The notes under the pieces were generated by a model. It made no database searches, had not been told where the DNA came from, and saw nothing but the letters and a program-made list of their open reading frames with translations. From contig JAAOMT010000284.1 of assembly GCA_016748015.1 (NCBI GenBank), forward strand, positions 1 through 48,989: DNA of 48,989 bases. Direction: 5' to 3'. Below are positions 10,867 to 45,477 of this stretch, piece after piece (the stretch's first letter is position 1; each line of letters starts with the position of its first letter). Position numbers and translations under genes: made by a program. The stretch is from Geosiphon pyriformis uo1. Its lineage: Eukaryota; Fungi; Glomeromycota.

Positions 10867-10884
10867 TTCTGTGGGAGAGCACCA
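10867..10884 (-). promoter_or_regulatory. PBS of B (TGGTGCTCTCCCACAGAA)
   Basis: Same position and near-identical sequence to the PBS of A. Confidence 0.8.
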
Positions 10885-10886
10885 AA

Positions 10887-15906: not shown

Positions 15907-16771
15907 TGTTACTCATAAAAAGAAAACAGATATAAAAAACAGCAGACCAATAAGAGAATAGTATTTAGCACATGAGCACATTGCTTAGCAATGTGGAGCA
16001 ATATCAGAAATTATAACACATTGCTCAGCAATATAGAGCAATGTCAGAAAACATGGCACATTGTTCAGCAATATGGAGTGATGTTAAAAAATTAGAGCAC
16101 ATTACTCAGCAATGTGAGCATTGCTTAAAAAATCATAGCACATCACTCAAAAATGTGAGCAATCTCATAGAACATTAATTATGTATATATAGCAGTAGCT
16201 TTAGAAGTAGAAAAAGCAGAATTTTTTAGTTAAAAATCTCTCATTCACAAATATTGAATAAATAAATTATTTACCATCCAAATCCACTCTTCACTATCAA
16301 CACTCCATGTTGATAGCAATTAATATTTAACTACACTGAAACAATAGCTCTTGATTATGGCTATTGATGGATACTAACTTGCACATTGCCTTGGCTTATT
16401 TCTTTATATCATTTCTTTTATTTTCTTGTCTTAATTGTTGTTATTACTAACTTTATTAAGAATTAACACATGGGATACTGACATCAGAATATAGCACTGG
16501 TAAAAGACCCAGAAATAAGAGTAGGACACTTGATTGAAGTTAGCTTACCAAAAAAAACACTGGCCATTACACTGAGAAAAAAATTGACAAAACTGCAGTT
16601 TCAGGAAGTTACAGATAAAACTATTACCACTGAATCTCTGTCCATTATACAAAAGACTCAACCAAAACCTTCAGATAAACACACTTTCAGATTGCCATCA
16701 TCGACAATAGTCTTGAGCACCAAGTTATGGGTTTGTTATTTACTCCAACAATCAAGTAAACACCTGTAACA
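15907..16771 (+). repeat. 5' LTR of C (865 bp)
   Basis: TGTTAC...GTAACA; direct repeat of 25183-26086. Confidence 0.93.
15978..16165. repeat. ~40-bp tandem array in U3 of the C 5' LTR (5 units)
   Basis: Consensus CACATTGCTCAGCAATGTGGAGCAATGTCAGAAAACATGG. Confidence 0.85.
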
Positions 16772-16773
16772 TT

Positions 16774-16790
16774 TAGTGCTCTCTGTAAGA
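16774..16790 (+). promoter_or_regulatory. Degenerate PBS of C (T[A]GTGCTCTCTGTAAGA)
   Basis: Starts 2 nt after the LTR; TGG has become TAG by a G>A change. Confidence 0.7.
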
Positions 16791-16831
16791 TATAATTTTA
16801 CAGAGAACCAGCACCAACAAATAAATCAACA

Positions 16832-19800: not shown

Positions 19801-22800
19801 TGATGAGAGTGAACCAACACCAAGCTGGAAATGAGAAAAGAACAGCAAAGGAAAAGGAAAAGCAAAGAAAAAAAAGTTACTATCAACTGACAATTATACT
19901 CCTCATAAATATACACTACTACAACTCTCTAACTATCATTGACCAAAGCTTATATGCGTCGATTGTGATAAGAAATTGTCATCAATGGGTGCATGCTGTG
20001 GTGACAATGAAGAATATTCAACAGCAACCAAATTTTACTGCCAAATGTGTATTCTAAAATGTTTTGAACAACCAAAACGAGTGGAAAAATGGGATAATAC
20101 CCCATGTTTAGCTTGTGGAGAGACCCTTCTGGATGAAGGAATGTGAAACAACATTTCTGGGCATAGAGGAACGTGTAATAAAACCTGTCAGTATATGATC
20201 CTAATCAATGACTGGGTATGTAAGAGAACACCAATCAATGATGCCTGGAAACAAGCATTGCGACAATTAGAAGGATATCCACATAATAAGCATGAACTCT
20301 GGAGAATGGCAAATGCAAAAGCAGAAGGTGCAACAATCAATAAACTACTGGAAATAAAGAACAACTCTTTGTTGCTACCTGAACCTGAGTATGTCCAAAT
20401 ATTTGATGTCTTTGGCAACATTGAGGATGATCCCGAGAAATTCCATAAGCACTACTAGAGATTAGCACTGACAAAAGAGGAACAGAAGCAGCAGCTAGCA
20501 TAGCTAAACACTCAACTATGTGACTACTGTTTAATTCTATGTGACTTCCAATATTGTAATGAGTGTAATCTTATTTACAACCCACCAATCCGCATGATCT
20601 ACACGATCTCAGAAGAAAAAGAACCAATTAACAGCTGCACATCAAAATCGGAATCAATTTTCAATCCCAATTCAAACTCTGACAACAACAATAATGAAAA
20701 CACCGGTTCCAGCTCCATTCAATATGGCAACGAAGATAACAGTGATTTGGATTCAGATCCAAACTCTAAAACATTTATAGCACTTCCTGATCTTACCAAG
20801 GAGCAAGAGCTAAAGTGGTTCAACAACAATAATGAAGGTATCATGTCAGAGCATGTGCATGATACTAATGTAGGGTTTGATCTGAGATATCCTGGAAAAG
20901 ATGTCATCAAATTAGAATCACATTTGCACACTTGTATTGATCTGAAAATAGCACTGAAAATTCTAGTAATCACAATAATTCAACTAGCATCTAGGAGTAG
21001 TCTAGCAAAAAGAAAAATCAACATCAGAGGAGAAATAATTGACACAGGATATGTGGAAAATATTATTGCTATGCTATAAAACAATTCAGAAAAGACCTAT
21101 ATAATAGAGCCAAATGAAAAAATAGCACAGGCAATATTTCTGTCTCTGGTTAAAATAGCTCAGTTAGTGTCAGTAGAAAACAGAGAAGAATTAGAGATCA
21201 CAGCTAGAGGGATACAGGGATTTGAATCAACAGATAGAGTAGATATACCAGTTAATATGGTAAAAGAAGAGATTATTGACAAGGGAGAAATTATCTCTAC
21301 CAGTCAACCAATTTCTATTCCACCATATAACCAGTATATAGTAGTCATAAAAAAGAAAGTGAAGAATCAGAACCAGATTTTTGAAGCAGAAGTAGCACAT
21401 TGTGAATCAAGAGAAATTGGACTCATCAATCTCTATATACCAGCCAAAAACTATAACTGCATCAAAATTCCTATTTACAACAATATTGGAAAGATTATAG
21501 AGATATCAGAAGGAACCATCATAGGACATTTAACTACTAAAATAGAGGACCAACTACCAAACCCTATTCCAGACTTTCCACAGCTTTGTAGATATATTGA
21601 CATCATATCACAAACAATATATAGATGAAATAAATGTTATTTGCTCCAACCAGAACAATTGGAACAAATAAACATGGGGAATTTAAACTCACTCCAATGC
21701 ATGCAGCTGAAGATGTTGCTCAACAAGTTCAATGACATTTTCACCAGCGAAAATGAATTCAGCAGAACTGACATTATCCAGCACCAGATTAAAACTGGAG
21801 ATGCTATGTCAATAAAACAACAAGTATACAGAGTACCATCCGCCAGCCATAAGATCATTTGTTAAAAAATCAACTGGATGCTCAACAATGGGTTAATTTA
21901 GCCATCAATAAGCCTATGGTTATCGGAAAAAAAATGGGAAAATCCACTTTTGTATAGACTACAAAAAGCTTAATAGAGTCATGTATGGAGACAGCTATCC
22001 AACTCCATGAATTCAGGAATTATTCAATGCTTTTGGTGGAAACAAATGGTTCTCAACATTGAATTTAGATAGTGGTTACTGACAAGTAGCCATGAATCCA
22101 GTGGACAAAGAAAAAACTGTATTTACAATACAGGAGTAAAATTTTGAATTTGAAGTGATGTCATTCAGCTTAACAAATGCTCCAGCCACATTCCAGCAGC
22201 TAATGAAAATAGTATATACTGGCTTATTGTGGAAATCAATAGTCATTTATTTAGATAATACCAATGTATTCTCCAAAACATTCAATGATCATTTATATCA
22301 TCTACAACAAGTGTTCAAAAAACTACAACAAGCAGGGCTAAAGTTAAACACCAATAAGTGCTTCTTTGGCAAGACAGAATTAAACTTTTTAGGGCACATA
22401 GTAAGCAAAGACAGCATCAAAATGAATCCAGAAAAGATAGAGATAGTCAAAAACTTTTCAGTACCAACCAATATAATAGAGTTAAAATTATTCTTGAGAT
22501 TTGCAGGCTATTATTGATGCTTCATCAAAAACTTTTTCAAGATAACTCAACCACTCAATCATCTCCAAACCAAAAATGTAAAATATAAATGGACAGAAGC
22601 ACAACAAGAAGCTTTTGATATTCTGAGAAGAAAGCTTATACAAGCTTCAGTACTGATCTATCCAGATTACAACAAACTATTCATCATTACTACTAATGCA
22701 TCAGGCCAAACATTGGAAGCAGTATTATTACAGAAAGAACCAGATGGAAAAGAACATTCAGTCACATATGCCAGCCGAGGTTTAACTCCAGCTAAAAGAA

Positions 22801-23037
22801 ATTATAGAACACTTAGCAATTTATTGGGCAGTTATGAAATGGAGTGAATACTTGAGCCAGAAGTTTGATGTATACACAGACCACAAAGGATTAACAGCAC
22901 TTCATAAACAGGAATTTGGAAATAGAAGACAATCAAAATAGAAAATGGCACTATTACCATATACTTACACTATACATTATAAAAAGGGAAAAGACAATGG
23001 AAATGCTGACAGTTTGTTGTGAATAAGACAAATCTAA
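16832..23037 (+). pseudogene. gag-pol: gag-pol of C (extension, CA, knuckle, PR, Cys-rich, dUTPase, RT, RNase H)
   Basis: GTG at 16832; capsid from ATG 17843 (MAFAPITKLEKFTG); CHNCDKQNHFRANC; PR LILNSRS; dUTPase VGFDL/QLASRSSLA/IIDTGY/EKIAQAI/RGIQGFEST (~20870-21230); RT YLDNT; ends NADSLL*IRQI*. Confidence 0.9.
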
Positions 23038-23098
23038 AAACATCTCAACATAAAAATATAACAAAACCAGAACAAACCCAACAAAAATATAACAAAAG

Positions 23099-24479
23099 AT
23101 GAACATACAAAAATATCAACAACTACAACATTATATAAATACTCAACAGTTCAAGGAAAAATTATCTCAAAATAAGTGAAATAATATCAAACAACAATCA
23201 AAATATTTTATTAATTATAAAAATATACTTTACTAGAAAAACAGAAGAAATTCAGATCAACTAATAAGAGTCATCACAGAATTAGAGAAAGAGACAATAT
23301 TATTCAACATGTATTTAGATCTAACAGCAGGACATTTTTATAAAGAAGCAACCATGAAAAGAACCAGAAAAAGATACTATTGGCCATTAATGTATCCAGA
23401 TATCATTCAATATGTTTAGAATTGTAATGCTTGTTAGAGAAGAGATGGAACAAAACCCAGTGAACCATTAAGACCAATCAAAGTAGGACAACCATTCAAC
23501 CGTATTGGAATTGACTTAGTCGGACTATTAACAATCACTAGCAGAGGCAACAGATACATTGCAGTAATCATAAACTATCTTACAAAATGGCCAGAAGCAA
23601 AAGCCATTTAAAGAGCAGATGTAGAATTCATTGCCAAATTCGTCATCAAGATTTAATTTGTCGACATAGATGTCCAAAAAAACTATTATCAGATTAGAGA
23701 ACTCACTTTGTAAACAGAACATTAGCAAAATTAAGCCAAAGATTTGGAATAAAAAGACTATTATCATCACTATATCATCCACAAATAAATGGCTTAGTTG
23801 AAAGATTTAATAGAACACTGTGTGAAACAATTGCCAAAATCAGCCAAAAAAATCAGGATGAATGGGATTTGTTTATACCATCAGTATTATTTGCTTATCA
23901 GACAATGAAGCAAGATACCACACAAACAATACTATTTGAATTGGTATACAGTAGAACAGCAACATTACAGTTGAGATAGAGATCAATACATATCTAGCTG
24001 AACCAATAACAGAAGATAATTTCCAAGAAACATTGTTGAAAAGAACATATAACTTAATGGAAACACTAGAAAACAAATAATGGAAAGCAGCTGATAATAT
24101 CCAAAAGGCACAAGAAAAGCAAAAAAAACAACATGATAACCAACTAACAAATAAACCAATGGAATTCAAGATTAGAAACAAAGTACTATTACATCGTACC
24201 AAAGCAGAAAAACAATGGAGTGGAAAATTTGACCCCAAATGGGACAAACCATTTCACATAGAAGAAATTCTAGGAAATAGAGCTTATAAATTAAGATGAG
24301 ACAACAAAATCTTAGCCAAAGCAGCATATGGTGATCAACTAAAACCATATTACCAAATAGCATCATCATCTACCAATACTATTCCACAGTTGGGAGTACA
24401 AAGAATAATAGTTCAACCAGATAAGATTCCACGAGATCTGGAACCAATCATAGTTATTGAACTAAACACATTGAATTGA
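23099..24479 (+). pseudogene. Integrase of C (separate ORF)
   Basis: ATG at 23099 (MNIQKYQQLQHYINTQ), RIGIDLVGL, YLTKWPEA, YHPQINGLVERFN, KFDPKWD, LEPIIVIE. Confidence 0.88.
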
Positions 24480-24510
24480 ACAACCAAAAGAGTATATAAA
24501 GACACAGTAC

Positions 24511-25168
24511 ATGCGACAAAAGCAACCAAGAAAAATGGAAATACCAGATTACATTCACACCATAACTCAACAACTGTCCCAAACACTAAGTCAACAACAG
24601 TTAGACATAGAAATTGTCATCAACAACCAAACAATTTGCTATCAAAACAAAAAAAAAAGACAAAGAATATACCATATTAGCAGCTACCAAAGAATAATAA
24701 AAACTGAACAGATAACTTAATAGAAAAAGTGAAGAACACTTTTGGGAAAATACCTATTATGGCATTAACAGAAGAGCTTACAAAAGAAAATTGGAAACAA
24801 TAAATAGAACAACTTCCAATATTATATTGCTACTACCAATTAAGTCGAAAGTTGAATATTCAGGAGTTGTATATTAACAAATCCAAGAAAATATTCAACC
24901 AAGACATGATACAACAAATTGAAGAATTTATTGGAAAGAAAACTAATTCAACACTACATGTTAAAACAATGTACTAACTACACAACATATTTTAGAACTA
25001 TCCAGAAATACTGTTACACTCTGACATGGAAACCATAACCATTAACCAATGGGGAAGAATAAACAATACACAAGTAAAAGACGTAAAAAACAGAGTCAAA
25101 CAAACAATACTTGAAAAAGAAATATTAGAATTAATTCAAAACAAAAATTTTGATAGAGCTCAATATTA
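24511..25168 (+). pseudogene. ORF3 of C (unknown function; between IN and PPT)
   Basis: MEIPDYIHTITQQL...IEIVINNQTI...LYCYYQLSRKL...NFDRAQY* with internal stops; aligns by eye with ORF3 of D. Confidence 0.7.
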
Positions 25169-25182
25169 AAAAGAGGAGATAA
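25167..25182 (+). promoter_or_regulatory. Polypurine tract of C
   Basis: AAAAAGAGGAGATAA immediately precedes the 3' LTR. Confidence 0.8.
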
Positions 25183-26086
25183 TGTTACTCATAAAAAAAA
25201 AACAGATATAGAAAATAGCAGACCAATGAGAGAATAATATTTAGTACGTGAACACATTGCTCAGCAATGTGGAGCAATATCAGAAATCATGGCACATTGC
25301 TCAGCAATATGGAGCAATGTCAGAAAACATGGCACATTGCTCAACAATGTGGAACAATGTCAGAAAACATGGCACATTGCTCAGCAATGTGGAGCAATGT
25401 TAAAAAATTAGAGCACATCACTCAGCAATGTGAGCATTGCTCAAGAAATCATAGCACATTGCTCGGAAATGTGAGCAATTTTGTAAAACATCAATTATGT
25501 ATATATAGTGGTAGCATTAGAAGTAAAAAAAACAGAATCATTAGTTAGAAATCTCCTATTCACAAATATTGAATAAATAAATTATTTATCATCCAAATCC
25601 ACTCTTCACTATTAACACTCCATGTTGATAGCAATTGATACTTAACCACACTGGAATAATAGCTCTTGATTATGGCTATTGACAGATACTAACTTGTGCA
25701 TTGCCTTGGCTTATTTTTTTATGTCATTTCTTTTATTTTCTTGTCATAATTGTTGTTATTACTAACTCTATTGAAGATTAATGTGCGGGGTACTGACGTC
25801 AAGATATACTACTGGTAAAAGACTCAGAAATAAAGGTAGGACACTTGATTAAGATTAGCTTACCAGGAGAAACATTGGCCATCACACTAAGAAAGAAATT
25901 GAGAAAACTGTGGTTTTGGAAAGCTATGGATAAAACTATTACCACTGAATCTCTGTTCATTATACAAAGGACTCAACCAAAACTTTCAGATAAACACACC
26001 TTCAGATTGCCATCATTGACAACAGTCTTGAGCACCAAGTTATGGGTTTGTTATTTACTCCAATAATCAAGTAAACACCTATAACA
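25183..26086 (+). repeat. 3' LTR of C (904 bp; 6 units of the 40-bp array)
   Basis: Direct repeat of 15907-16771 with one extra array unit. Confidence 0.93.
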
Positions 26087-26161
26087 TCATTCAGTAATAA
26101 TACAACCTTTCAAACCAAACCAACTTAATTATTAGTAACTCTTTTACAAACAAACACAATA

Positions 26162-28005
26162 ATGGACTTGGACAACTACTCTGCCTTAATGGAATTTTTG
26201 GGTAAAGAACAATACCCATTAGAATACACTCAACAGCAAAGAAAACATTTATGTAAACAATCAAATTTCTATTTGATCCACCAAAACCAATTATATAAAA
26301 GAAACAAAAAAGATTCTGACTGCCTCCAAAGAGTTATCAGATTTGAAGAAAGAGAAATTGTAATATACAACATGCATACTGACCCATTAGCTAAACACTT
26401 TAGAAAAACAAAACCAATTTAGAAAACTTTAGCTTACTATTATTGGCCTATCTTAGGAAAGGACATTGCTAAATACATTAAAATCTGTGACATCTGTTAA
26501 AGAAGAGGCAAATCCAATCACAAAAAAGATATCCATTCAATTTCTGTTGGTCAACCATTTAACAGAATTGGTATAGATGTTGTTAGACCTTTAACAATAA
26601 CTTCTAATGGCAACAAATACATTATTACAGCTACTGACTATCTTACAAAGTAAGTAGAAGCAAGAGCCACTTCAGACCAAACAGCAGTCTTAATAGCCAA
26701 TTTTGTTTATGAAGATATCATCTGCCATCATGGCTGTCCAAAAAACTTTTATCTGATAGAGAAATAGTTTTTCTCAGTATACTGGTTAAAAAACTTTGTA
26801 GAAAAATGGGAATACATCATAAACTTTCTTCTCCTTACTACTCTCAAATAAATGGCTTAGTAGAACGTTTTAATAAAACACTATGTGAAACTCTAGCCAA
26901 AACCAGTGAAGAAACAAACTTATAGGACAAAGTACTGCCTTCAGCTTTGTTTGCTTATAAAACAGTGAATCATGACATAACAAGTTATGAACTTTTTTAT
27001 CTACTCTATGGATATATGGCAACACTACCAATAGAAATTAACATTAAAACAATACTCTTTGAAGAAATCACAATAAGAAATTATAAAAACATTTTGCAAA
27101 GAAGACTTGATAGCATTCTTGACTTCTTGATAGAAGCTTTTGAAAAGATAAAACAGTTCCAAAAAAAGCTTAAGAAAAAGAAAACCTATAAAACACTTTG
27201 GTGATTTGGTATTGGAATACTATTCTAACAGAGACAATGTTTATAGTGATAAATTCTTTAGCTGGTAAAAAGAACCCTTTTTAGTCAACAAAGTTTTGAA
27301 CAATAGTTTTTATATTCTTCAAGATCAATCTAAAACAATCTTCAATGATTGTCTTGTTTTTTTTTTTTGTTAATGTGTAGCCATATTGGTCTTTTTTTAA
27401 TTTAGCCATATTGGTCTTTTATTAGTTTAGTCACACTTAAAAAGCATGGCTTTTTCATAAAGCCAACTCACTCAGTACTCTAAAATACAAGATATGGCTA
27501 ACCACTAAGTAATTATGCCTAACTACATGCTAGTATAACCAGAAAACTTAAGGGGTATTACATTATTACATAAAGTAATTCTACTACTTAATACATTAAT
27601 CAATATTTTATTACAATGTGTGAATCTATTGCTTATTTTAATATTGGATTTGCCACTACCTTTATTACTATTCCTTGGCTTTTTGTGTATGCTGGCCAAT
27701 TGTAATAAATTTCTCTTAACTTTATTATCAATTTTCACTGATTTTTTCTATTCAGCTTGTAATTTGCAAAGTTTTCTCCATAATCTATTCCTCACTTGAG
27801 TCACTGCTCATTTACACACCTTAATTAAAACATTATTATTAGTCTTTTGATCAATATTAGCAAAAGCATTGATTCTTTCGAATTGCTCATTGATTAATCT
27901 GATTATCCTGTTGATGATATATAACTCAAAAAATATCATAAACAATCTGATTAGTTGTCTGTTGTGGTAATACCAACTCAAATGATTAGCAAAAATCAAG
28001 TATAA
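26162..28005 (+). pseudogene. Integrase of X (separate ORF), interrupted by a truncated LINE
   Basis: ATG at 26162 (MDLDNYSALMEFL...), RIGIDVV, DYLTK*VEA, INGLVERFN; the C-terminus resumes after 27900 (LKKYH...VVVIP). Confidence 0.85.
27359..27899 (-). mobile_element. 5'-truncated LINE (ORF2 C-terminus, 3' UTR, poly(A))
   Basis: Homologous to ~32454-32955 (LINEQF.RINAFANIDQ...GYTSM*); poly(T) on the + strand; imperfect 13-bp TSD TGATTGTCTTGTT (27346-27358) / TGATTATCCTGTT (27900-27912). Confidence 0.82.
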
Positions 28006-28009
28006 ATAA

Positions 28010-28620
28010 ATGCACTATTCCCAAAACAGAGGTATTTTAAATCAACATAAACAATTATTTTCTGGATCAAAACATTCAAAATGCTTTTTATACTCTCCAT
28101 AAGTATTGGATCTGACCATTGGAAAACAAACTATCATAACTGATAACAGTAGAATACATACTGTTATTAGACCAAAGAAAATTACTACCAGAAGAGAAAA
28201 AATTGGTAGCAAAATAGATAAATATCTATTGGAAAGTATAACAGCAGCTATACTCCCATCTTCCAGCACAATTGAAAAACCATTTCAAGAAATCTTATTC
28301 ATAGATAAAAACTTGTCATATAAAAGACAATTAGAATTCTATGGTTGCCTTGGAAAAATTATAGAAAATATAAAACTCATAAAAAAAACAACTTCAGAGA
28401 TACAGGCAGAAATTTTGGTTAGATGTTTCAAGAATTTTAACTATTGCTAAAAGAGCCAAAACTCTAATACAAAGATTTAGTTTCTTAGATACAAAATTCA
28501 TTTTTTCTCAAATATTATACATCTTATCTACCAAAGACTTCAATAAACTAGTTAGCTTTGAATTAAACAAAACTCTTCAAATAGATTATCCCATAAATAG
28601 CTTGATTTTGCTAAAGCTTA
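28010..28620 (+). pseudogene. ORF3 of X (unknown function)
   Basis: ATG 28010 is in frame with ORF 28106-28450 across one TAA. Blocks LDLTIGKQTI, LEFYGCLGKIIE, ILTIAKRAKTL and a degenerate DFA(G)A(Q) end precede the PPT. Confidence 0.6.
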
Positions 28621-28639
28621 ATCTTTTTGAAAAGAATGA

Positions 28640-29274
28640 TATTATGGTTAAAACCCATACTTTTTATTAGTTATCACATGTATTAGCTACTAATATCATA
28701 TAATTAGCCACCCTATTTTTAGATAGTAATTATTGACCTAATCATTGACCTGATTATTGATTACTTTTGATAGCTATATAAGCAATAAATCTTTTAGCTA
28801 TAGAAAAACATGTCAGAAATCAAAAAAATCAAATAAAAAAATAACAACTTTTATCTTAATCTTTTTCTTATTGCTAATTTCTCTTTTTCTATTTTTAAGT
28901 ATTCGAATATCTTAGGATAAAAGATTACTTTTTGGTTATTCCTTATCTTTTTCTGAAAACGTGTAATTGTAGTATTTAAAGATTATTGAATAAAATGTAA
29001 CTGAAGAATACATCTAATACCTAATATTGAATTCTAAGAGCACTAATGTGAAGCATAAAATTATACCAGTATGTAATTATTTATTGACAGTATGAACTAT
29101 TCCTCTATCTTCAGATTCTCTGGTTATCCTTGAAAAATATAGTGACTAAGATATTTTATGAGACTGATCTTGCACATTGAATCTATACTTATTCAATTCA
29201 CTCTTTGAAGTTAAACTCTCTTTGATTCTTTTCATTACCCTACAATTTTGTTTTCTCTTGCTATTAGTTAGCTT
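28640..29274 (+). repeat. 3' LTR of X (terminal ~16-20 bp missing at the insertion of an ORF1-only element)
   Basis: Starts T[A]TTATGGTTAAAACCCATA; homologous to 33820-34450 and 47415-48128; preceded by purine-rich GAAAAGAATGA. Confidence 0.85.
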
Positions 29275-31673
29275 TTTTTTGTTTTTTTTTTGTTAATATG
29301 TAGCCACGTTGATTGTTTATTAATTATGTTCACAGTAATATGGCACTTTTATAAAACCAGCTTACCCAATAATACAAAATCACAAAATGCAACTAATTAC
29401 AAATGGAAAGCCTTAACTACATGCTAGTACTATCTTTGCTATTTAATATATCAAACATATCTAATTTATACATCTTACCCATAATGCTAACAAGCTCATA
29501 ACTATTTTTAACCATACTACTTATCCACTTAGCAGTCTGATTAGGACTGAATTTAATACTGGAAGGCTGATTTTTCCAAAAATATATCATAACATTAAAG
29601 GTGTTATCATAAACTGAAAAATCTTTAACATTATTGTCATCATCATCAACCATGTCATCATTATCAGATGCATTCTCTAAGCAGACCCACTCACATTTTT
29701 TCTCAAAGTGTGTTATTTTTTTTTGCATCATGAAAGCAACAGCAGCCAAGTCTTTATTTTGCTTAGCCAACTCAGCCACACATTTTTTAACTAATGCATT
29801 CACAGCAGATAGAGTAAACAGCAATTTGGTAACCAACACAACCAGAGCACCAACAGATTCAACTAAGAATTTTATCAACACAGACAGTTTACTAAGATGG
29901 AATTCCAGAGAAGCCAACCTAAATTCAACAGCAATATTGAAAGCAAAAGAGACAACAGGCAACATAGGTGTTGTAGTTTTGGGGAGACCACCAAGATCCA
30001 AGTTCATTTCAGCAGCAGCAACAACAAAAAAAACCACAAAGGCAGCAGCTTTGGCATAAAATTTTGATCCAGCAAATGAAGGTTTGAAAACTCTGGAGCC
30101 ACCAGAAGTGTTAAAAGATAGTTTGGGTGGGAGAAAAGGTGATCTCTTATAGTCTATAGCCAAATAAGTCAAGTCTTGACACTTGTAGCAGTGGCAACAT
30201 TCAGAAGTTTTCCACCAAATGCAGCAACCACACAAAATACCAGTTTTTGAAACAACAGTATTCAAAGATTTCAAAGAATCAAAGATAATTACAGCAAAGC
30301 ATTAACATTGGTAAAATTCAGGAGAGTAAGGAATGAAACATGTATGGCCACCAATTTGAGAGACCAAATCACTTATCTCAAAGACAATACAGCCAAAGGA
30401 AAGATTAACCAACTTAGCCTTAAAAGTGTCTCTTGAAGAAATAACATTATTTTGGTTGACAACAAGGAGAATTTTAACACTGTCTTTTCTAACCAGCACA
30501 GACCAGTGAGTAAGAGCAGCAACAGCAAAAGAAGTGTTTTTGAAATGAACCACAGCATATTGCCATAAGCCAGCAGGCTTTAACTTAACAGAAATAACAA
30601 CACCAAAAATGCCAAGAGCAGATTTGATGTCATCAGAGAAGATACCCAAAGGTACATTATAAAGTACAACTGACAAAGGAAGAGAAGAAACAGAGGCCAT
30701 ATTAGAAAACCATGCAATCTTATGAGTAGTCAAAAAAATTTTATTACCAATGGCCACTTTGGTGGCACCATTTAGACTCTTCTAAAATGCAAATTTCACA
30801 CAGAACAACTTGACAGCATCTTGTGAAACAAACTTAATCCCAATACAACCAGGCAGCAACTGAAACAAGAAACTGAGCAAGGCCATCTTGATCTTAAATG
30901 TAGCACCAGATACAAGATTGAAGGCCACTCAACCAAAGAACTTTTGACAACCATTCACATTTTTCCAAGCATTACCATCAGCAGCACCAGAGATTAAGGG
31001 AGGAGTAGTTGATTCCATTTTCATCTAATCAGCCCAATCTTTGAGATTATCTGAAATAATAGGTTGTTTTACTACTGAGATTGGTGATAATCTACTAAAG
31101 AGTATCACATTAGACAACACAGCCAGTAGTTGATCTTGGCCCATCTTGGGAGATGTGCTGCTGTTGTTGTCATCCATATCAGGAAAAGGGCTGGCTGCTG
31201 CTGTGGAGATCTTACCAAAGATCTCATCTGGAACTACAAAGGAGTTTGGTGTAACCATAGCAGTTGTAACTGCCTGCTGCTGTTTTTTGGAATTTTTTGC
31301 TTTCACAGTCATTTGTGAAGCAGTAGAAATAGTAGTAGTAGTAGTAGAAGTGGTGAGAGTGGAAAAGACCAGTTTGTTAACTGGTCTGTTATTAAAAATC
31401 TTTGGGCTCTTAGAAGTAGTAGAGACAACACTGAGACTAACCCAAGTGTGTCTTTTGGAAGAAACTTTGACTGGAAAAGAACTACCAGCCAAAGGTAAAG
31501 CACTAATATTTTTTAAAAGAAATATAGCCAGAATGTTTTGTCTAGCTGTTTCAATAATTAAGAGACCCTCTTGTGTTGAAACTTTATTAGTTACTATAAG
31601 AAAAATAACATTTGCAACTTTTTTACTCTTAGCTCTAGTCATGGTCATAAAATTTAGAAGAGAAAAAGTTTTT
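29273..31673 (-). mobile_element. ORF1-only non-LTR element, copy 1 (~2.4 kb, HAL1-like)
   Basis: Poly(A) tail, LINE-type 3' UTR, one degraded ORF, no endonuclease or RT; possible short TSD TTAGCTT. Confidence 0.8.
29417..31648 (-). pseudogene. LINE ORF1-like nucleic-acid-binding protein (~740 codons)
   Basis: S/T-rich N-terminus; RRM-like blocks (SVVLYNVPLG...IKSALGIFGVVISVKL...QYAVVHF; FKAKLVNL); degenerate knuckle CYKCQDLTYLAID; coiled-coil and acidic tail; ends DSTSM*. Confidence 0.78.
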
Positions 31674-31680
31674 TTAGCTT

Positions 31681-34450: not shown

Positions 34451-35573
34451 CCATAATGCATACAAGTTCATAACTACTCTTAACAAGACCACTCATCTAT
34501 TTAGTAGTCTAATCTGGATCAGATTTGATATTAGAGAATTGAACTTCTCATAATTCCATCATCACATTAAATGTGTCATCATAGACTGAAAAATCTTTAA
34601 CATCATTATCATTATCTTTTTTTTCATCATCTATGTCTTCATCATCAGATATGTCAAAGTGGATCTTTCCACTCCTTAACTTAATGGCCCACACTTCCTT
34701 TTGCAGCACAAAAGCCACAGCATGAACAGCATTAATTTGGTTTTCCAATCCAATCACACTTTTCTTCATTGCCTCTGCCATAACAGGTGGAGTAGACAAT
34801 AATTTAGTAACCAACACAACCAAAAAACCCACAGGCTCAACTATAGATTTGATTAACAAAGACAGTTCACTAAGTTAGATTTTCAGAGAAGCCAACTTAG
34901 CATTAACAGCAACATCTGAACCAGAAGAGACAACAGGCAACAAAGGCACAACACCTTTGGAGGGGGCACCAAAAGCCAAATCTGTATTAGCAGCAGCAGC
35001 AACAGAAGGAACCACAAAGGTGACAGCTTTGGCATAAGATTTAGCTCCAACAAAGAATGACTTGAAGATATTAGAACTACTAACAGAATTAAAAAAAAGT
35101 TTGGGAGAAAGAAGTAGTAACACCTTGCAGTCCACAGCCAAATGATCCAAACTTTGACATCTGTAATAGCGACAGCATCTAGAAGTTTCTTACCAGATGT
35201 GACAGCTATGTAAGGTACCAGTTTTTGAAACAGCAGCATTCAAAAATTCCAAGGAATTAAAGGTCACCACAGCAAAGCATTGACATTGATAGAAATTAGG
35301 GGAGCAGAGAATGAAACATGTACAGCCATTAACTTGGGAGACCAGATTACTTATTTCAAATACAGTGCAGCCAAATTAAAGATTGACCAGCTTAGCTTTA
35401 AAAATGTCTCTTAAGAAGATAACCTCCTTTTGGTTGGCAATGAAGAGAATTCTAACACTGTTTTTTCTGACCAAAACAGACCAGTAAAAGAAAACAGTAG
35501 CAGCAGAAGAAGTGTTCTTAAAATTAACCACAGCATATTGCTATAAGTCAGCAGACTTTAACTTAACAGACGT

Positions 35574-36545
35574 TGTTACTGGAGGTTTTTAGTCTTTTTT
35601 CTGTAATGTTGTTGGTATCTGTTTGTTATGAATTCACATTTTCTGGATGTGGTTGAACTTTTAATAACTGAATTTTCTCTTCAAATTATCTTCTATAATT
35701 TGAACTGCTGGGCTTATAAGTGGAATGGCCAATTTCTTGCCAATTACTTTATGTAGTTACATTGTAATAAATGTCAACTCTTTCTCAGGAATTGCTCGTT
35801 TGAAAGCTCATTAAAAATGTGTAGTTACTTTGCTGTGAAAGTCAACTCTTCTACAGGAATTTTATCTGTAGGCTATTCTAATGATTGTAATAAAAAAAGA
35901 GAAGAAAAATAAAAGAAATGTAAAAGAAATAGAATTTTATCAAGGAAAACGTTTTCTATTTAGGCCTGGAGTCACTAACAGTTTATTGAAATTGGTAGCT
36001 AATCAATTTCAAAACATTAGTTGGGTTTTGAGAATTTTTCAAGTGCAATAATTAAAGAATTTGGTTTTTCAAATTATTTGATATTTATTTCTTTTTGTGT
36101 GTATGGGAATGGTTCTAAGTGACAAATCTAAAGTAAGATACATTTTCTTGAAGAGAAAAACTCTTCTTTTATACAACTTGTTGTAGTACTAGTCTATGAA
36201 CTTGCACTTTTTCTTTTTGCTCAAATTTTGGTGAATTAAAGATACATTTTGATGAACTACAAGTTATTTTGCTAAACTATTGATTAATTTGGGTGAACTA
36301 TTCATAATTTCGGCGAATTTCTGTAAATTTCGGCGAATTTTAGAATATTACAAAGTTTAGGGTATTGTGTAATTTGATCATCCTACTTTTTGTTATACTA
36401 ATTAGATTCTTTTAATTGAATTGTAATATGTGATAATTGATTAAATAATAAATAATAATTTGAAATGATATTAATATACTAATTAATTATAGGAATTATA
36501 AGGATAATTTCATGCTAATTAATAGCTAAAATTCTACTGGTAACA
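35574..36545 (-). repeat. 3' LTR of D
   Basis: Direct repeat of 44506-45477. Confidence 0.94.
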
Positions 36546-36558
36546 TAATCTCCTCCTC
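36546..36558 (-). promoter_or_regulatory. Polypurine tract of D (GAGGAGGAGATTA)
   Basis: Abuts the 3' LTR. Confidence 0.85.
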
Positions 36559-36645
36559 AAAACTGAGCTCTGTCAAAGTCCAAGCACTATTTGTAATATT
36601 GAGATAGTGATCCAAAATAATTGAAGTAATCTGGTCTAAAAATTG

Positions 36646-37233
36646 TTAAAATTTCAGTTCTGTGAGTTTGCCAATATATTGGATTTTTATTGGTTGCAAT
36701 ATTAGATTTTGTAGAACATTTTCACAAGTATTAAACAAATCATAGAGTCTAAAAGCTGCTCTAAGTTTGTAGTGAGTGTTTGTTGGTCCAGCTGCTGTTT
36801 TGAATTCATTGTGGATTTGTTTTTGTATAGCTTCAGGAGTGAGATTTGTTGCTTTAAGTTCCAGTTTTCGTTCATAAAGTGTTTTTCCAATGTAAAAGTA
36901 TTTATAGATAGAGGTGTGTTCATTGTTCTGTTTATTGAGAAGTAGTAAAAGTTTTTGTTGCATTGTAGCATTTGGTGGAATGTCAATAGGGGCAATTAAA
37001 AGATTTTCTTCTAGTGCTTGCTTCAAAAGTCTTGGTAACCTATTTTCAGAGTGACTTCTTGTTTTTCTTTTATAGAGGTGATAGTTCTGTGAATGATTTG
37101 CTATTGGGGCTGTGGTTTCTTTTTGAATGTAATTAATTTGACTTCCATTAATTGTTATGGATAAGTCAGGAAGTGTTTTTAAGGCTAACATTAACTTTTG
37201 GGATATTTGTTGAATATTTCGGGGAATAATCAT
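36646..37233 (-). CDS. ORF3 of D (195 aa open; probably extended to ~36557 originally); unknown function
   Basis: Sense ORF between IN and PPT with its own ATG; homologs at the same position in C and X; no signal peptide or TM segment is evident. Confidence 0.8.
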   Translation of the reverse strand: MIIPRNIQQISQKLMLALKTLPDLSITINGSQINYIQKETTAPIANHSQNYHLYKRKTRSHSENRLPRLLKQALEENLLIAPIDIPPNATMQQKLLLLLNKQNNEHTSIYKYFYIGKTLYERKLELKATNLTPEAIQKQIHNEFKTAAGPTNTHYKLRAAFRLYDLFNTCENVLQNLILQPIKIQYIGKLTELKF

Positions 37234-37380
37234 GATAAAATTGACTAATTATGAAAAGAGAAAATAAGGAAAATTATTTTTGGGGTATGGGGTTTTTATT
37301 TGTTTTTGGGTTTGGGTGTTTTTGTAATTTATTTACTATTTTTTTCTCTTTGTGTTTTTATTGGGGAATTATTGTAAAAT

Positions 37381-38766
37381 TTAAGTGTTCAAGTTTGGTT
37401 ATTGTTCTATTATAATTATTGGTTCTAAATTTCAGGGAATATCTTCAGGATTAATTAAAGGGGAATGTGTACCAATTTGCGGAATTAATGGTTCGGGATT
37501 GTTTCTGGAATGATAGTGTTTCAATCTGTCTTTATGTGCAATTTTTGCTAGTATTTTGTCATCAAGTCTTAACTTGTATAATCCATTGTCTAGAATTTCG
37601 TGAATATAAAATGGTCCATTCCATTTGTTTTCAAATTTCCCACTCTATTGTTTTTCAGCCTTAGTTCTGTGTAAGAGAACTTTATTTCCAACTTTAAATT
37701 CGTTGGTAATAGGTGGTAATTTGTTGTCATGTCTTTTTTTTTGTTGAGCTTGGGAATGTTCAATATGAGTTGCTGCTATTCTTTTTTTTCCTTCCAGTAT
37801 ACTAAGAAGGGTGTAAGCTCTTCTTTGGAGTGTTTCTTAAAAGTTTTCTTCATTAATTGGTTGCACTGAATATGTTTCTACTGTGAAATTAATTGGTAAT
37901 ATTGCTGTTCTTCTATAAGTAAGATCAAATGGTGTGTGTTTCATAGTATCTTGTTTTAGTGTTCTGTATGCTAATAACACTGATGGAATAAAGATATCCT
38001 ATTCCTGCTCAAAGTCTGTTGAGACTTTGGCTAGAGATTAACACAATGTTCTATTGAAACATTCTACAAGTCCATTTGTTTGAGGGTGATAAGGTGATGA
38101 TAGAGGTCTTTTGACATTGAACCATTCACAAATTTCTTGTATCAAGTTGTTCACAAAATGTGTTTCTTGATCAGATAAGAGTTCAATTAGGCATCCATGT
38201 CTACAGATAATGTTTTCATAGATGAAATTTGCTACTGATTTTGCATCTGCTCTTTGGATGGCTCTAGCTTCAGACCATTTGGTAAGATAATCTACTGCAA
38301 CTGCAATATAATGATTTTCTTGGGTTGTGATAGGTAATGGTCCGACTAAATCAATTCCAACTCTGTCAAAAGGTTGTCCAACTTTGATTGGATTTAAAGG
38401 TTCTGTGGGGCGAGTTCCTTCTCTTTTTTGACAACTATCACAAGATTCTACATATTGTCAAATATTTTTTTGCATGTAAGGCCAAAAATAATGTTCAAAA
38501 GTTTTTTGAATTATTCCATCTCTTCCCAAGTGTGCTGAAGAAGGATCTGTGTGCATGTTGTATAGAATTGTTTTTTTTTCATTTTTTTGTATTAATCTGA
38601 GTGGTTGGTCTGGGTTTTTACAATTTTTGTAATATATTTTGTTATGGTGTATAAAATATTGTTTGGATTGATGTTGTAATCGATGTTTTTCACTTGGAGA
38701 CCAATTTTCTGGTATAGTGAGAGTTTCCAAATAGTTTTTGATGTTGTTGTAATTTTCTGGATCCAT
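37381..38766 (-). pseudogene. Integrase of D (separate ORF)
   Basis: ATG at 38766 (MDPENYNNIKNYLETL), RVGIDLVGPL, DYLTKWSEA, SPYHPQTNGLVECFN, WNGPFYI; same 1386-bp span as the IN of B. Confidence 0.9.
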
Positions 38767-38834
38767 TGTTGGTAATCTTGTTGTTTTGTTCTGCTGTTAA
38801 GTTTGTTGGTGTTTTGTTGGTGTTGATGTTAGTA

Positions 38835-41800
38835 TTAATATTGTCTCATTCTTGAGAGGCTATCAACATTGGTGTATAGTTTTCTTGATTTGTGATGTAC
38901 AATCTATTGGTAATCTGCTAGGAAGTCATTCTATTGAGACTGTTTGGCACTTTGTTCAGTTTTTTTTTTATTAAGCCATTTGAGACCAATATTGTCAGTT
39001 ATTATGTCAAATTTTTTTCTATTCTTTAGATATTGTTGAAAGTATTTGAAAACCCAGATGACTGCAGCAGCTTCCAGTTCAGTTGAGCCATATTTGAGTT
39101 CTGTTGGCTTGAGTGTTCTACTGGCATAGGCAATAACTTGTTCCTGGCTATTTTAATCCAATTGTGATAAGATGACACCAAATGCTATGTGTAAAGCATC
39201 AGTGGCTAATTGAAATTGTTTGTTGAAGTCTGAGTAGACAAGAACTAGGGCTGTTGTCAATTTTGTTTTGAGAGTTTCAAAAGCTTTTTGTTGTTCTTCA
39301 GTCCATTTGTATGGTATGTTTTTGTTGGTAAGATAATTGAATAATTTAGCAATTTCTGAGAATTTTTTTATGAAATTTTTGATAGTAAGAGGCTAATCCT
39401 ATAAATCCTTTTAGTTCTGTAGTATTTTTGGAAGTTTGAAAGTTTTTGACAGCACTGATTGTTCTTGAATTTGGTTTGACTCTATCTTTACTAACTATGT
39501 ATCCAAGAAAGATCAAGCTTGTTTTTCTAAAGTGACATTTCTCAATGTTTAACTTTAATCCTGCTTTTCATAATCATTGAAAAACTTCTTGCAGGTAAAT
39601 GAGATGAGTCTCAAAGCTTGGTGAGTATACATCAGTGTCATCAAGATAGACAACTACTGATTGCCACAAGAGTCTTTCATATACAACATCCATAAGTCAC
39701 TGGAATGTTGCTGGTGCATTGCAGAGTCCAAAAAGCATAACATTGAACTCATAGTTTCCTCTTTGGGTGGTAAATGCTGTTTTGGGTCAATCTTTTGGGT
39801 CTATTTTGACTTGCCAGTATTCGCTTTCCAAGTCTAAAGTTGAAAAGAACTTGGCTTTTCCTAGAGCATCTAGCATGTCATTAATTCTTGGAAAAGGGTA
39901 GGCATCTCCAATTGTAACACTATTCAGTTGTCTATAATCAACACAGAATCTGATTTTTCCGTTTTTCTTTTTAACTAAAACTACTGGTGAGGCCCAAGGA
40001 CTTTTTGATGATTGAATCAATCCGTTATTGAGCATTCTTTGGACCTTTTCTCTTATGAATTGGTGGCTGGCAGGTGGTACTTAATAAGCTTGTTGACATT
40101 TTGGTGGAGCATCTTCTGTATGGATCTAATGTTGAACAATATCCGTTTTTCCCAAGTCATTGTTGTCTTTTACAAATATATCTGCAAATTCAGCTATCAA
40201 TTGTTTCAATTGTCTTTGTTGTTGAGGTTCTAAGGGACCCATGTTGATTTGAGAGAGTTTTTCCTCCAAAAAGTGGTAGTTTTCAGTAGTGAGAATGATA
40301 TTTGGATTTGGGAGTAGAGTGTGCCTTACAATTTCGATAAAATTAGAAACAATTTAAGGGTTTTTATCTTGAAAAATATTGCTGTGTATGATTCTAATCT
40401 CTAGTTTGTTTAATAAGACAATAGGGTAATTATTAAGGTTGTAGAATGTAACTCAAATTTTTTTCATTCTTTTGGAAATATAAATGTTTGGAATTGAGAT
40501 TTCATGCTTTAAACAGATTTGTTTATTGGATTTAAAGATTTGTTGTGTAGTGGTGGGTTTTGAGCAAGTGTAAATTTCGTGATGTTCTCCAAAAGGTGAA
40601 ATGGTAATTGGCTGGGGAAGTTGAAGAATCTGGTGAGATTCATTTTGTGTATTAAGAGCTATGTTTACTGGAACTGTAAATTGTCCAGTTGAACCAAAAC
40701 CTTGAGTTCCTCTTTCACTTTTTCCCAATTGTTTTCTGTTGTTTATTGATTGTAAACCCGAAATGTTGATTAAGAGTAAGTAGATTGCTTGAGCAATTTT
40801 TTCAGCATGTTCAATTTTGAATGGTTTGTCTGTCTCATTCTGCAACATGATGGTAATGTCTTTAGTGTATCCTGCATCTATAACTCCTTCTCTAATATTG
40901 ATTCCTTTGCTTGCCAATGATGATCTGGAGGCAATTTGAACCATTGCTCCTGGTAGAATTTCAAGAGCAATTTTGAGATTGATTTTTGTCAAGGACTTTG
41001 GTTAAAGAACCAAAGTATCTTTTCCTGGATATCTTAAGTCATATCCAGCATCAATTTCGTGTGCTTTTTCTGGTCTGATTCCTTGGCCATGGTTGTTAAA
41101 ATATTTAAGTTGTAGAGGTGGTTGCTTTTCAAGAAGATAGATGGAAATGGTTGGTAGTTTTTCTCTTAGTTTAGCTATTCCCAATTCGATTTCATTTTCA
41201 TCATTCTCATCTGGCAGAGGAATGCTAAGAGCATAACATTCTAAACACCATTGGTCGTCAAAAGGCATAATACATTCTTCACACAATTGAATGTTTATTT
41301 GCTCTAATTGTTAAATTTGAGCTTCTTTGGTCGAATATGTAAGGCTTGTAATTTGGTGGTAGATTTCTACTTCATCTTTATAATCAAATCCAGCTAATTC
41401 TATGATATACTCAATATATTCAGCTTCTTTCATTTGGTGGACATCTTCTTGGGTGGCTCTATTGATCAATGCCATTGCTAGGTCAAAAATTATTTCAGCA
41501 TCATAAGGGTAGTGGTAAAATTTATTGAGAGCACTGTTGTATGTTGCATCAAATAGTGTTCCTCTTCTGACTTTTTCCGAAATTGATAGAGCATATTGAC
41601 AGGTTTGATCACATACTTCTCCTCTCATTGCTATATTAATCCAATTGTATTCTTTTGGTAGCATTTCTCCACATGTAAGGCAAGGAGTTTTGTCCCATTT
41701 TTCACTTCTCTTTGGGGATCCAAATCGTTCTCTATGGCATGCCTTGCAGAAGTAACAAGTACAAGTTTCATATTCCTCTTCTGGGGAGATACAGGCTCCC

Positions 41801-44460
41801 ATAGATGAAAGCTTCTTTTTGCAATCTTTGCATTTTAGTGGAATGTATGGTGGTTTTTTTCATGGTTCTGGTGTGAAATATCTAACTTTCTTCCATCCTC
41901 TTGATTCTTCAAAAATCTCTTGTTCTGTTTCCTCAGCCCAATTAGATGGTAATCCAAGAGCTATGTAGGTTTCAATGAGTGGCATTTCCTTCTCTTTTTC
42001 AAATTCAAATACTGGAGCTTTTTCTGATTATTTGTTAAAGGTACCACAGGTTGCAGGTATGATGGTATATTGTCCTTGGTATGAGATTTTAAGTTCTTGA
42101 GTTTCCCAGTTTAGGTTTGCATTGGCCTTAAGAAGCCAATCATTTCCGACTAGAGCTTGATATTGGGGTGCATCTATGACAAGAACTTTAACTGAAATGG
42201 TGATTCCATCAATTGTAAAGGGGAAATTATCAATTTCTCCTACTGAAGTCTTCTTCATACCATCAGCTATAACAATAACTGTTTGAGCTGGTCTATCTAC
42301 GTTTCGTTTGAGTTGTTGCATCAGCTGGTAAGTAATGATACTTCCAGCCAATCCACTATTTAAGATTAAGCAAATGGGTTTTCCTTCTACTGTAGCTTCT
42401 GTATACATAGCAGTAATTGCTTTCTGTTCATTGACTGCTGCATTACTAAGCAGAAATGATGATTTATTTGCTTCAAATTCAAATGGAAATATATCTAACA
42501 GATTGGCATTTTGGGCAATTTGAGCTGGTGGAATGGTATGGTTGGAAGAGTTTGATCTTAGTGCTGCAACTTCATCTTCAGAAAGTGCAGTTTGTTGAAA
42601 ATCCGATTCCTCTGGTATTGTAAGATAACTGAATTGAGTGTGATAGTGATTGGGTCTTTGCTGACCAGGATTTCGGGAAACCAATTGGTTATTTAAATTA
42701 ATTCTGTTGTGGTTACTCTGCAATTGATTTTGGGGTGTAAATTGGTTATGTTGAACCAATCTTCTTGCTGGTACTTGATATTGTTAAGTGAGTGGTGTCT
42801 GATATGGCTGAATTGGTAAAGGTTGCTGATATTGTTGCTGCATTGGTTGTGGAGCTGGTGGATAGTAACTGTTTTGATTTTGTGGTCTTGGTGAATAATA
42901 GATTGGTGGTGGAGATTGGTAATAAGATTGTTGTGGTGAAGAGTAACATTGATTACTCCTGTTTTGTTGGTCTCTTTGTAATTTCCTACAATCTCGTTTC
43001 CAGTGTCTTGGAATTCCACAATAATGACAATTTTAAGGTTGGTTGTTGGATGGTGATCCAAAATTGTTTTGATTGCAGCATTGTGGGGGTTGATATCTTT
43101 GTGGTTGTTGTTGCTGTTGTTGTTGGTTTGTGAAGTAGCTTTCAACTTTTTTTGTGAGTTGGTCTATCTTTTCTTCAGCTGCTAAGCTGGTTTCTTCAAT
43201 TGCAAGGTTTACAAGCTTGGTGTGATTTGCTTCTTCTATTGCTATTTTATAGCTCTTTACATGTCTAATAGCAGTTGCTAAGTCTGCTGAAGCTTGTGGA
43301 CAAACTTTCTTAATCAGTTTGTCTTTTAACCCTGCTATAAACTAATCCAGAATTTGAGCATCAGAATAGTAGTTATTGGTTTCCAATTGTCAGATTCATC
43401 TGAGAAGTTTGTTAAATCTTCCAAAATAGGTCATAACAGTTTCAGATGTTTTTTGTTTAATATTGCGAAAGCAGTTTCTGAAAGTGATAGAGGTATTGTT
43501 GTCAGTGAATTGTTGTAGAAAAGCATCTTTGAATGCTTGCCAGTTTTCAAATGGTTCTTCTAAATTTTCAAACCATTCTTCTGCTGTTCCTTGGAGAAAG
43601 TAGGGAATTGCTTTAAGCATTCTTGCTGCAATTCAACCATTTGCATCTCCTGCTTTTTGAACTTTGTCAAGCCATTTTTGAGAACTAGTATTATTGTCTT
43701 CGCCAGTAAATTCTGGGATTTTTGCAATGTAAGCAGTTGCCATTTCTTCTTCATTTTCTGTAATTTCTTCTGGTTCTGATTCAGTTTCTTCACTTTCTAA
43801 GCTTTCTGAATGATTACTTTCGTTTTCCTGTAAGTAATCAATAATATTGGCACTTGTTGATATTGGTTCCTGCTGTTGAGTAGGGTTTCTAGGTGACTGA
43901 AAATTTTCTAGTCTGGAGAAGCAGTTGAGTGATGAATTTGGTGTTTGTGGTTGAACAAGTGAAATTGAAAATGGTGTAATAGAAAGTGGTAATTTGACAT
44001 TGGTTTTTTGTTCAGGTGTTCACAAGTGTTTGGCAGTTGTTTTTTGTAATGTTGGAGTGTTTAAAGTGGTTCTTGAGTATTGTTTTACTTTTTGTTTGCC
44101 TTTGTTGCTTGTCTCTGTTTCTGATTCAAAGTTAAAAGAGTATTTGGACTGTACTGGGTATTTTTCTTCACAGTACTCAATAATATTAAAATTAAGTTCT
44201 TGGAAGTAGGTAGCAAGTGTTTTACTGTTCAGTTCTTCTGTTCCTAATTGTGAATAGTGCACTAAATTATTGTAGAGGTTGCTTTTAACTTCTAAAATGT
44301 TGTAGTTTCCAAAAAAATAATTGTTGATGCAGTTTTCAATGTATTGGTATACTGATTTCTTTACAACTTCAATTCCGTCTGGAATGTTAAATCTTTGTTT
44401 GCAGTGAGTGTAAATTGACTGGTAATACTCTAGAATTGCTGTGTTTGGTGTGGTCGCCAC
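38835..44460 (-). pseudogene. gag-pol: gag-pol of D (gag and PR in the same frame; dUTPase ~40685-41100)
   Basis: Fragments carry CA, knuckle, PR (LILNSG), Cys-rich domain, dUTPase (AGYDL, IASRSSLA, VIDAGYT, KIAQA, RGTQGFGSTG), RT (SPWASPVVLV, YLDD) and RH ending HTNVDSLSRMRQY*. Confidence 0.92.
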
Positions 44461-44485
44461 TTTGAATTTGTTGTTGCTGTGTTAT

Positions 44486-44503
44486 TTCCGTAAGAGAGCA
44501 CCA
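44486..44503 (-). promoter_or_regulatory. PBS of D (TGGTGCTCTCTTACGGAA)
   Basis: Starts 2 nt after the 5' LTR. Confidence 0.82.
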
Positions 44504-44505
44504 AA

Positions 44506-45477
44506 TGTTACCAGAGGTTTTTGGTCTCTTTTTTTGAATGTTGTAACTGTCTGTTGGTTGCAAATTCACGTTTTCTGGATGTGGTTAAACCTTCAGTAAC
44601 TGAATTTTTTCTTCAAATTATCTCTTATAATTTGAACTGCTGGGCTTATAAGTGAAATGGCCAATTTCTTGCCAGTTACTTTATGTAGTTACATTGTAGT
44701 AAATGTCAACTTTTTTCCAGGAATTGCTCATCTGAAAGCTCACTAAAAATGTGTAGTTACTTTGCTGTGAAAATTAACTCTTCTACAGGAATCTTGTCTG
44801 TAGGCTACTCTAATGATTGTAATAAGAAAAGAGAAGAAAAATAAAAGAAATGTAAAAGAAATAGAATTTTATCAAGGAAAACGTTTTCTATTCAGGCCTG
44901 GAGTTACTAACAGTTTACTGAAATTGGTAGCTAATCAATTTCAAAACGTTAGTTGGGTTTTAAGGATTTTTCAAGTGCAATAATTAAAGAATTTGGTTTT
45001 TCAAATTATTTGATATTTATTTTTTTTTGTGTATATGAGAATAGTTCTAAGTAACAAATCTAAAGTAAGATACATTTTCTTGAAGAGAAAAACTCTTCTT
45101 TTATATAACTTGTTGTAGTACTAGTCTATGAACTTGCACTTTTTCTTTTTGCTTAAATTTTGGCAAACTAAAGATATATTTTGATAAACTACAAGTTATT
45201 TCGCTGAACTATTGATTAATTTGGGTGAACTATTTATAATTTCAGCGAATTTCTGTAAATTTCGGCAAATTTTAGAATGTTACAAAGTTTAGGGTATTGT
45301 GTAATTTGATCATCCTACTTTCTGTTATACTAATTAGATTCTTTTAATTGAATCGTGATATGTGATAATTGATTAAATAATAAATAATAATTTGAAATGA
45401 TATTAATATACTAATTAATTATAGAAATTATAAGAGTAATTTCATGCTAATTAATAGCTAAAATTCTATTGGTAACA
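44506..45477 (-). repeat. 5' LTR of D
   Basis: TGTTACC...GGTAACA, 972 bp. Confidence 0.94.

Follow-up and report, generated by a model that had tools for sequence, protein, structure and literature searches.

A Ty3/Gypsy lineage from Geosiphon pyriformis with a separate integrase gene

Introduction

Delivery of integrase within Gag-Pol is regarded as general among retrotransposons with long terminal repeats (LTRs). A contig of the fungus Geosiphon pyriformis uo1 (JAAOMT010000284.1, assembly GCA_016748015.1), whose whole stretch of 48,989 nucleotides is called the window here, raises the question of whether a Ty3/Gypsy lineage may instead encode integrase as a gene of its own. Nested LTR elements and fragments of other repeats make up the AT-rich window, among them the elements designated A, B, C, D and X. 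An earlier note, made from the letters of the window, had proposed that D, C and X share a layout in which a polyprotein ending at RNase H is followed by a separate integrase open reading frame (ORF) and a third ORF (ORF3). The questions are whether this split is real, what ORF3 is and how the downstream ORFs are translated; element D serves as the model copy.

Structure of element D

Element D is a dead Ty3/Gypsy copy with decayed reading frames, lying on the minus strand between a 5′ LTR of 972 bp with TGTTAC...GTAACA ends (44506..45477) and a 3′ LTR (35574..36545). Comparison of the two LTRs (92.9% identity) gave 905 identities, 63 transitions and 3 transversions, almost all differences thus being transitions. 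The sequence contains a primer-binding site (TGGTGCTC..., 44489..44503, minus strand) and a polypurine tract (PPT; 36546..36558, minus strand), and comparison of the flanks revealed a 4-bp target duplication, ACGT at 35570..35573 (plus strand) and ATGT at 45478-45481.

From first ATG to stop, the polyprotein of Gag, protease, Cys-rich stretch, dUTPase, reverse transcriptase (RT) and RNase H occupies 38835..43743 (minus strand), with Pfam matches to Retrotrans_gag (1e-13), Asp_protease_2 (2e-6), dUTPase (2e-19), RVT_1 (2e-31) and RT_RNaseH_2 (2e-32). A single frame with 19 stops, running from 44481 to 39376, carries Gag (with a CCHC knuckle) through RT, and RNase H is reached past one frameshift near 39376 and terminates at a TAA (38837-38835). 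The stop is followed by a 68-nt A/C-rich spacer (38767..38834, minus strand; 5% G over the last 60 nt), which is predicted to be unstructured (0 kcal/mol), and then by a stand-alone integrase ORF (37399..38766, minus strand; 455 codons, 6 stops), which opens with an ATG at 38766 and encodes the H2C2, DDE core and SH3-like end domains. ORF3 (36526..37233, minus strand; ATG at 37233, 235 codons, 1 stop; profile match iE 4e-8) overlaps the PPT and extends six codons into the 3′ LTR. The D family is very high-copy, since 33,524 contig pieces from one DNA run align to positions 36000-40000. The proposed polyprotein order was recovered in D. The distribution of dUTPase is patchy: it is present in D, B, C and the metagenome locus L021 but missing from X, as is the Cys-rich stretch.

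The integrase split in relatives

Because all copies in the window are decayed, the split was judged on relatives. When the 120 best-matching homologues of integrase are aligned, 101 have their first Met at the start column of D, while the others start at a later Met (16), carry a short extension (2) or have no Met (1). This search was restricted to proteins of 250-797 residues, so that fused forms could not appear in it; when longer proteins were searched, 3 of 120 matches reached at least 45% identity, all three being gene models without the junction. Of 64 fused polyproteins, 2 had a Met at the corresponding position.

RNase H precedes integrase in 32 of 80 loci of metagenome DNA. The 10 of these that group with the window copies (the clade loci) are all split by a stop and a separate ATG, at stop-to-ATG distances of 89, 62, 74, 63, 30, 727, -8, 110, 521 and -4 nt (8 of 10 within 110 nt). 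Fourteen of the 32 loci are fused and more distant from the window copies, and 8 were scored as split yet lack an ATG at the conserved column; these 8 are probably decayed or mispaired.

The 13 split elements all fell in one branch of 17 (SH 98) when a tree was built from 143 RT-RNase H rows, and IQ-TREE on 32 rows gave support of 90/96 for the split-element branch; the RT tree was built without a Copia or BEL outgroup, and its neighbouring sequences are non-reference sequences rather than named Gypsy clades. The branch of 17 also holds two spliced gene models and the proteins P0254 and P0255, the last two of which have integrase fused and so count against a split without exception; the split is therefore the mark of a lineage in which two or more members are nevertheless fused. 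Among the long matches, the end of RNase H or the start of integrase is missing from P0251, P0252 and P0253, and P0257 has about 100 extra residues there. These four appear from their sequences to be spliced gene models rather than true fusions, and they were excluded from the IQ-TREE trees (the 32-row RT tree and the integrase tree). No integrase relatives were found in the viral contig collection. Intact-looking integrase genes are present in Rhizophagus irregularis.

The split might be a decay artefact of an ordinary single Pol frame, given that many stops and some frameshifts occur in all window copies. However, it lies at the same position in four copies (B, C, D and X) of three families: A, B and D, at 75-80% DNA identity, form one family, C and X each belong to another, and the lack of any blastn match among the LTRs of D, C and X agrees with the unrelated LTRs described in the earlier note. 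Relatives from the clade whose RT-RNase H and integrase frames are long and open are split too, which refutes decay for the clade and leaves it a negligible probability. Thus, the shared Met column of the homologues and the consistent division of the clade loci show that the split is not decay, and the separate-integrase layout is real and lineage-wide. The earlier note had regarded the layout as an old, conserved expression strategy needing subgenomic RNAs or reinitiation, and this is supported, because the intact relatives examined have a stop and an own ATG in place of an uninterrupted Pol through integrase; its clade-wide extent holds for the ten loci and fails for the two fused members.

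ORF3 and its distribution

ORF3 of D is up to 91% identical to proteins of Geosiphon pyriformis, and all 120 matches listed are from that species, which makes this glomeromycotan fungus the most likely host. A profile from 9 sequences found 458 ORF3 clusters at 50% identity, and 0 of 488 shuffles scored as high as D ORF3 against the family profile. The family has a core of about 140 residues, in which R52, L56, G63 and F97 are nearly invariant, and the predicted structure is all-helical and confident (pLDDT 95.5). An Env membrane glycoprotein of the Errantivirus type was ruled out, because none of 127 ORF3 sequences has a 19-residue hydropathy window above 1.6 and Pfam gave no Env family and no other family in more than 1 of 121 members. 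Foldseek found no match at E 0.001 in PDB or BFVD, and the best VIA score was Z 5.1 over 69 residues; this absence of fold matches does not show that ORF3 is a new fold. Comparison with a closterovirus coat protein gave atlas scores of 0.94 and 0.92, but 150 and 143 shared features, and this protein was represented neither among the Pfam matches of ORF3 nor among its listed fold matches. ORF3 is an unnamed helical family distinct from Env.

ORF3 follows integrase in L001, L002, L003, L004, L007, L013 and L021, some of which helped to seed the profile. In P0254, a metagenome gene call, RT, RNase H, integrase and ORF3 lie in one 1023-residue frame (ORF3 domain E 3e-28), and this one predicted protein ties ORF3 to the Pol machinery. 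P0254 was considered as the basal, ancestral state (96/90 in FastTree), and this was unsettled in IQ-TREE; as P0254 is one predicted protein with an unsettled place in the tree, fission and fusion are indistinguishable.

Several observations speak against a three-part layout throughout. L010, L011, L014, L017 and L020 have the split but lack ORF3, the PPT coming straight after integrase, so that the split does not depend on ORF3. The third ORF of C (ATG 24535 to 25169, plus strand, one frameshift) matches the ORF3 family of D weakly (3 of 499 shuffles as high), and the third-ORF pieces of X (remnant at 28103-28646, plus strand) do not rise above shuffles (42 of 481 and 36 of 484 as high); the region upstream of the X remnant is disrupted by other repeat fragments, with no ATG confirmed. 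Accordingly, the separate integrase proposed for D, C and X stands in all three, and the third ORF stands in D, is weakly matched in C and lacks a confirmed ATG in X. The conservation of ORF3 holds as a family and not in every sublineage.

Junctions and translation of the downstream ORFs

An A at position -3 was found in 16 of 21 integrase starts vs 25 of 91 internal ATGs, and the junctions fall into three types. The first is a G-poor, A/C-rich spacer predicted to be unfolded or nearly so (window copies and L015). The spacers between RNase H stop and integrase ATG in the window measure 68 nt in D, 51 nt in B (in frame), 61 nt in C and 64 nt in X, the last with the C insertion at the junction set aside. 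The B junction, in frame with a single stop, and the fused members of the clade are what programmed readthrough or frameshifting would predict, integrase then being fused to Pol and its Met incidental. We regard this as improbable, because the four spacers occur in three phases, those of the relatives vary widely in length, and the integrase start Met is invariant in alignments A1 and A6.

The second type is a stop-start overlap at the integrase ATG, seen in L014, L021, L011 and L017; those of L011 and L017 come from an intervening ORF, and L004 has such an overlap at its ORF3 ATG. In L011, a restriction-endonuclease-like ORF (521-1237; Pfam Mrr_cat_2, E 5e-9) stands just before integrase with ATGA overlaps on both sides. 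In two other loci, tails of 314 and 586 residues follow RNase H before the stop (L003:3497-4438 and L013:4945-6702), with no Pfam match above the cut-off.

The third type is a hairpin with a CANNGUGA loop before the integrase ATG (L003:4452-4506, L004:174-228, L006:13-72, L009:164-221, L012:1-51 and L016:481-538), ending within about 20 nt of that ATG in the 6 loci. Every sequence forms the full 5-bp stem, and 4 of the 5 pairs show changes on both sides; because these sequences also served to draw the structure, the controls are lenient. A model of this covarying motif from the 6 loci found L019, outside the training set, at the same place (8-72, E 1e-13). A comparison of 10 loci with Rfam, with E allowed to reach 1, produced no match, and the hairpin had none in the viral or genome contig collections.

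On these features we lean, moderately, towards translation of integrase and ORF3 from the full-length RNA by ribosomes that would restart or enter internally. The Gag-Pol gene would then end at RNase H, with integrase and ORF3 read from their own start codons and ribosomes engaging close behind the upstream stop on genomic RNA; the A/C-rich spacer, the stop-start overlap and the hairpin may be three solutions to this one step. Human LINE-1 ORF2 is made by reinitiation over an inter-ORF spacer of about 60 nt. Restart on genomic RNA would yield little integrase per RNA, and an integrase made apart from Gag-Pol needs some other way into the particle. A candidate helper that might recruit free integrase is ORF3, which forms the end of the P0254 polyprotein; we hold this prediction only tentatively and consider it doubtful.

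A number of points tell against restart. In eukaryotes it is unusual for ribosomes to restart efficiently once they have translated a very long ORF, overlap occurs at only 2 of the 10 direct RNase H-integrase junctions, the gap in L013 reaches 727 nt, an out-of-frame ATG precedes that of integrase by 16 nt in L005, and the hairpin was not found in the window copies. Moreover, the D spacer holds a branch-point-like TACTAAC and a CAG, and in five loci the hairpin ends with a CAG 5-8 nt before the ATG, both of which fit a splice acceptor. These signals, together with stop-to-ATG distances that vary up to the L013 value and the good start context, favour production of integrase and ORF3 from their own shorter mRNAs, via an internal promoter or splicing, like Env; third ORFs are typically expressed from spliced messages (PMC5408684). 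However, the 87 nt immediately upstream of the ATG in L005 and the 114 nt in L007 contain no AG and hence no nearby common splice acceptor, stop-start overlaps recur, and the compensatory pairs favour a folded RNA over a mere splice signal. Shorter mRNAs are a serious possibility, to which we assign a lower probability than to restart or internal entry.

Gag start and Cys-rich stretch

A Met-free extension of 239 codons, led by a GTG common to A, B and D, lies in frame before Gag (43744..44460, minus strand), and it is likely, judging from its sequence, that this GTG is a non-AUG start of Gag. C carries a GTG at the corresponding place (plus 16832), and differences between the A and D extensions by codon position number 49/32/81, a third-position bias. 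The stretches of about 240 Met-free codons span 44460-43744 in D, 10841-10137 in B and 2687-1968 in A (all minus strand), and in all four elements, C included, the lead GTG sits between an A at -3 and a G at +4. No frame of copy A contains an ATG across 766 nt past the LTR (about 6 expected); the post-LTR regions of D, B and C contain 2, 4 and 4, respectively. This pattern suggests a GUG start with leaky scanning to the ATG, which would yield two Gag forms.

The Cys-rich domain between protease and dUTPase (D 41871-41182, B 8267-7575, A 515-3, C 19949-20584) had no Pfam match and was not found in the 80 metagenome loci.

Other copies in the window

Element A (1..3701, minus strand), the 5′ part only of a D-family copy, has no stop in 930 codons and spans an N gap. 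It is inserted into element B (3702..11875, minus strand) about 100 nt past the B integrase stop, cutting B before ORF3. B has its RNase H stop at 5237-5235 and its integrase ATG at 5183, 51 nt on, and so shows the polyprotein and integrase parts, as the earlier note had it. Element C (15907..26086, plus strand; RNase H stop 23035-23037, integrase ATG 23099) interrupts element X (11876..29277, plus strand; RNase H stop 26095-26097, integrase ATG 26162), being inserted exactly at the RNase H end of X, a few bases from the stop (15903-15906, 26087-26090). Further X-family sequences in the window are a solo LTR flanked by a perfect CCAT duplication (33820-34450) and another 5′ LTR with a gag start (47415-48128). 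Repeated fragments, several with plus-strand T-run ends and resembling pieces of non-LTR retrotransposons, lie at 27392-35570 and 45483-46577.

Discussion

Element D resembles canonical Ty3/Gypsy elements (Metaviridae) in its direct LTRs with TG...CA ends, primer-binding site, PPT and target duplication, in the order protease-RT-RNase H-integrase after Gag, in its H2C2/DDE integrase and in an RT that groups among Gypsy polyproteins; among relatives with a solved structure, Ty3 Gag-Pol matches the integrase profile best (E 6e-51). It differs in that integrase lies outside the pol frame, and we file the layout as a variant. In Ty3/Gypsy elements of fungi, integrase as a rule forms the end of the pol gene (PMC3248453). 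Chromovirus membership was rejected, since no chromo family was found in the D or B integrase or in the Pfam column of the 120 matches.

A dUTPase between protease and RT is known in fungal elements (PMC2864245, PMC6431247), and D shares this position with dUTPase-bearing Gypsy elements such as Tmt1 of Tuber and those of Postia and Phanerochaete; by contrast, these have one or two ORFs with integrase in Pol, and the available text of PMC2864245 mentions no separate integrase. LTR elements of bdelloid rotifers likewise have a small non-Env third ORF and a dUTPase in pol, but their third ORFs are GDSL, DEDDy, coiled-coil or membrane proteins and their integrase is treated as belonging to pol (PMC5408684). 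DGLT-A has a single ORF (PMC5006619).

Ginger1 DNA transposons share with D a stand-alone Gypsy-type integrase, a YPYY-like N-terminus and TGTNR ends, and their 4-bp target is CCGG or CCGT/ACGG (PMC2836005). The six insertion flanks in the window (ACGT/ATGT, CCAT/TCAT, CCAT/CCAT, and on one side only CCAT, CTGT and ATAT) would fit a decayed NCGT target, and CG sites are methylated in Rhizophagus transposons (10.1101/2021.03.30.436303). Unlike D, with its direct LTRs and RT, Ginger1 lacks RT and is bounded by terminal inverted repeats. The sixth-ranked of the longer matches is an integrase-OTU protein. The three Ginger1-like proteins make up a separate branch (100/97) and lie outside the split group in both integrase trees (FastTree and IQ-TREE), so that nesting of Ginger1 in the clade was rejected and descent is shown in neither direction.

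Replication enzymes made from a downstream cistron or independently of Gag are known from LINE-1 ORF2, SART1, the stop-restart of victoriviruses and foamy virus Pol. To our knowledge, an LTR retrotransposon in which only integrase is encoded apart is not among them. SART1 is named in e1-7557806. The fullest account of the data, in which an old Gypsy lineage of Glomeromycota and metagenome hosts broke an RT-RNase H-integrase-ORF3 frame into three cistrons read by restart on one RNA, with a new RNA element for the integrase start, GUG/AUG Gag starts, ORF3 as a new-fold carrier of free integrase into the particle and the stand-alone integrase as a possible intermediate towards Ginger1 transposons, we consider unlikely as a whole.

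In the literature on the layout and the host, available in part and taken apart from Repbase, GyDB and most subscription papers, no Gypsy lineage with a separate integrase gene was found, and the layout is apparently undescribed. LTR elements make up 41.2% of the Geosiphon genome (PMC11952901), and many Geosiphon "hypothetical proteins", including all 120 of the ORF3 matches listed, can be explained as transposon ORF3s, which bears on gene counts in Glomeromycota fungi. A lineage with a separate integrase must solve both the translation of a downstream cistron and the packaging of a free enzyme, and because Rhizophagus irregularis is culturable and has intact-looking integrase genes, the layout is testable there.

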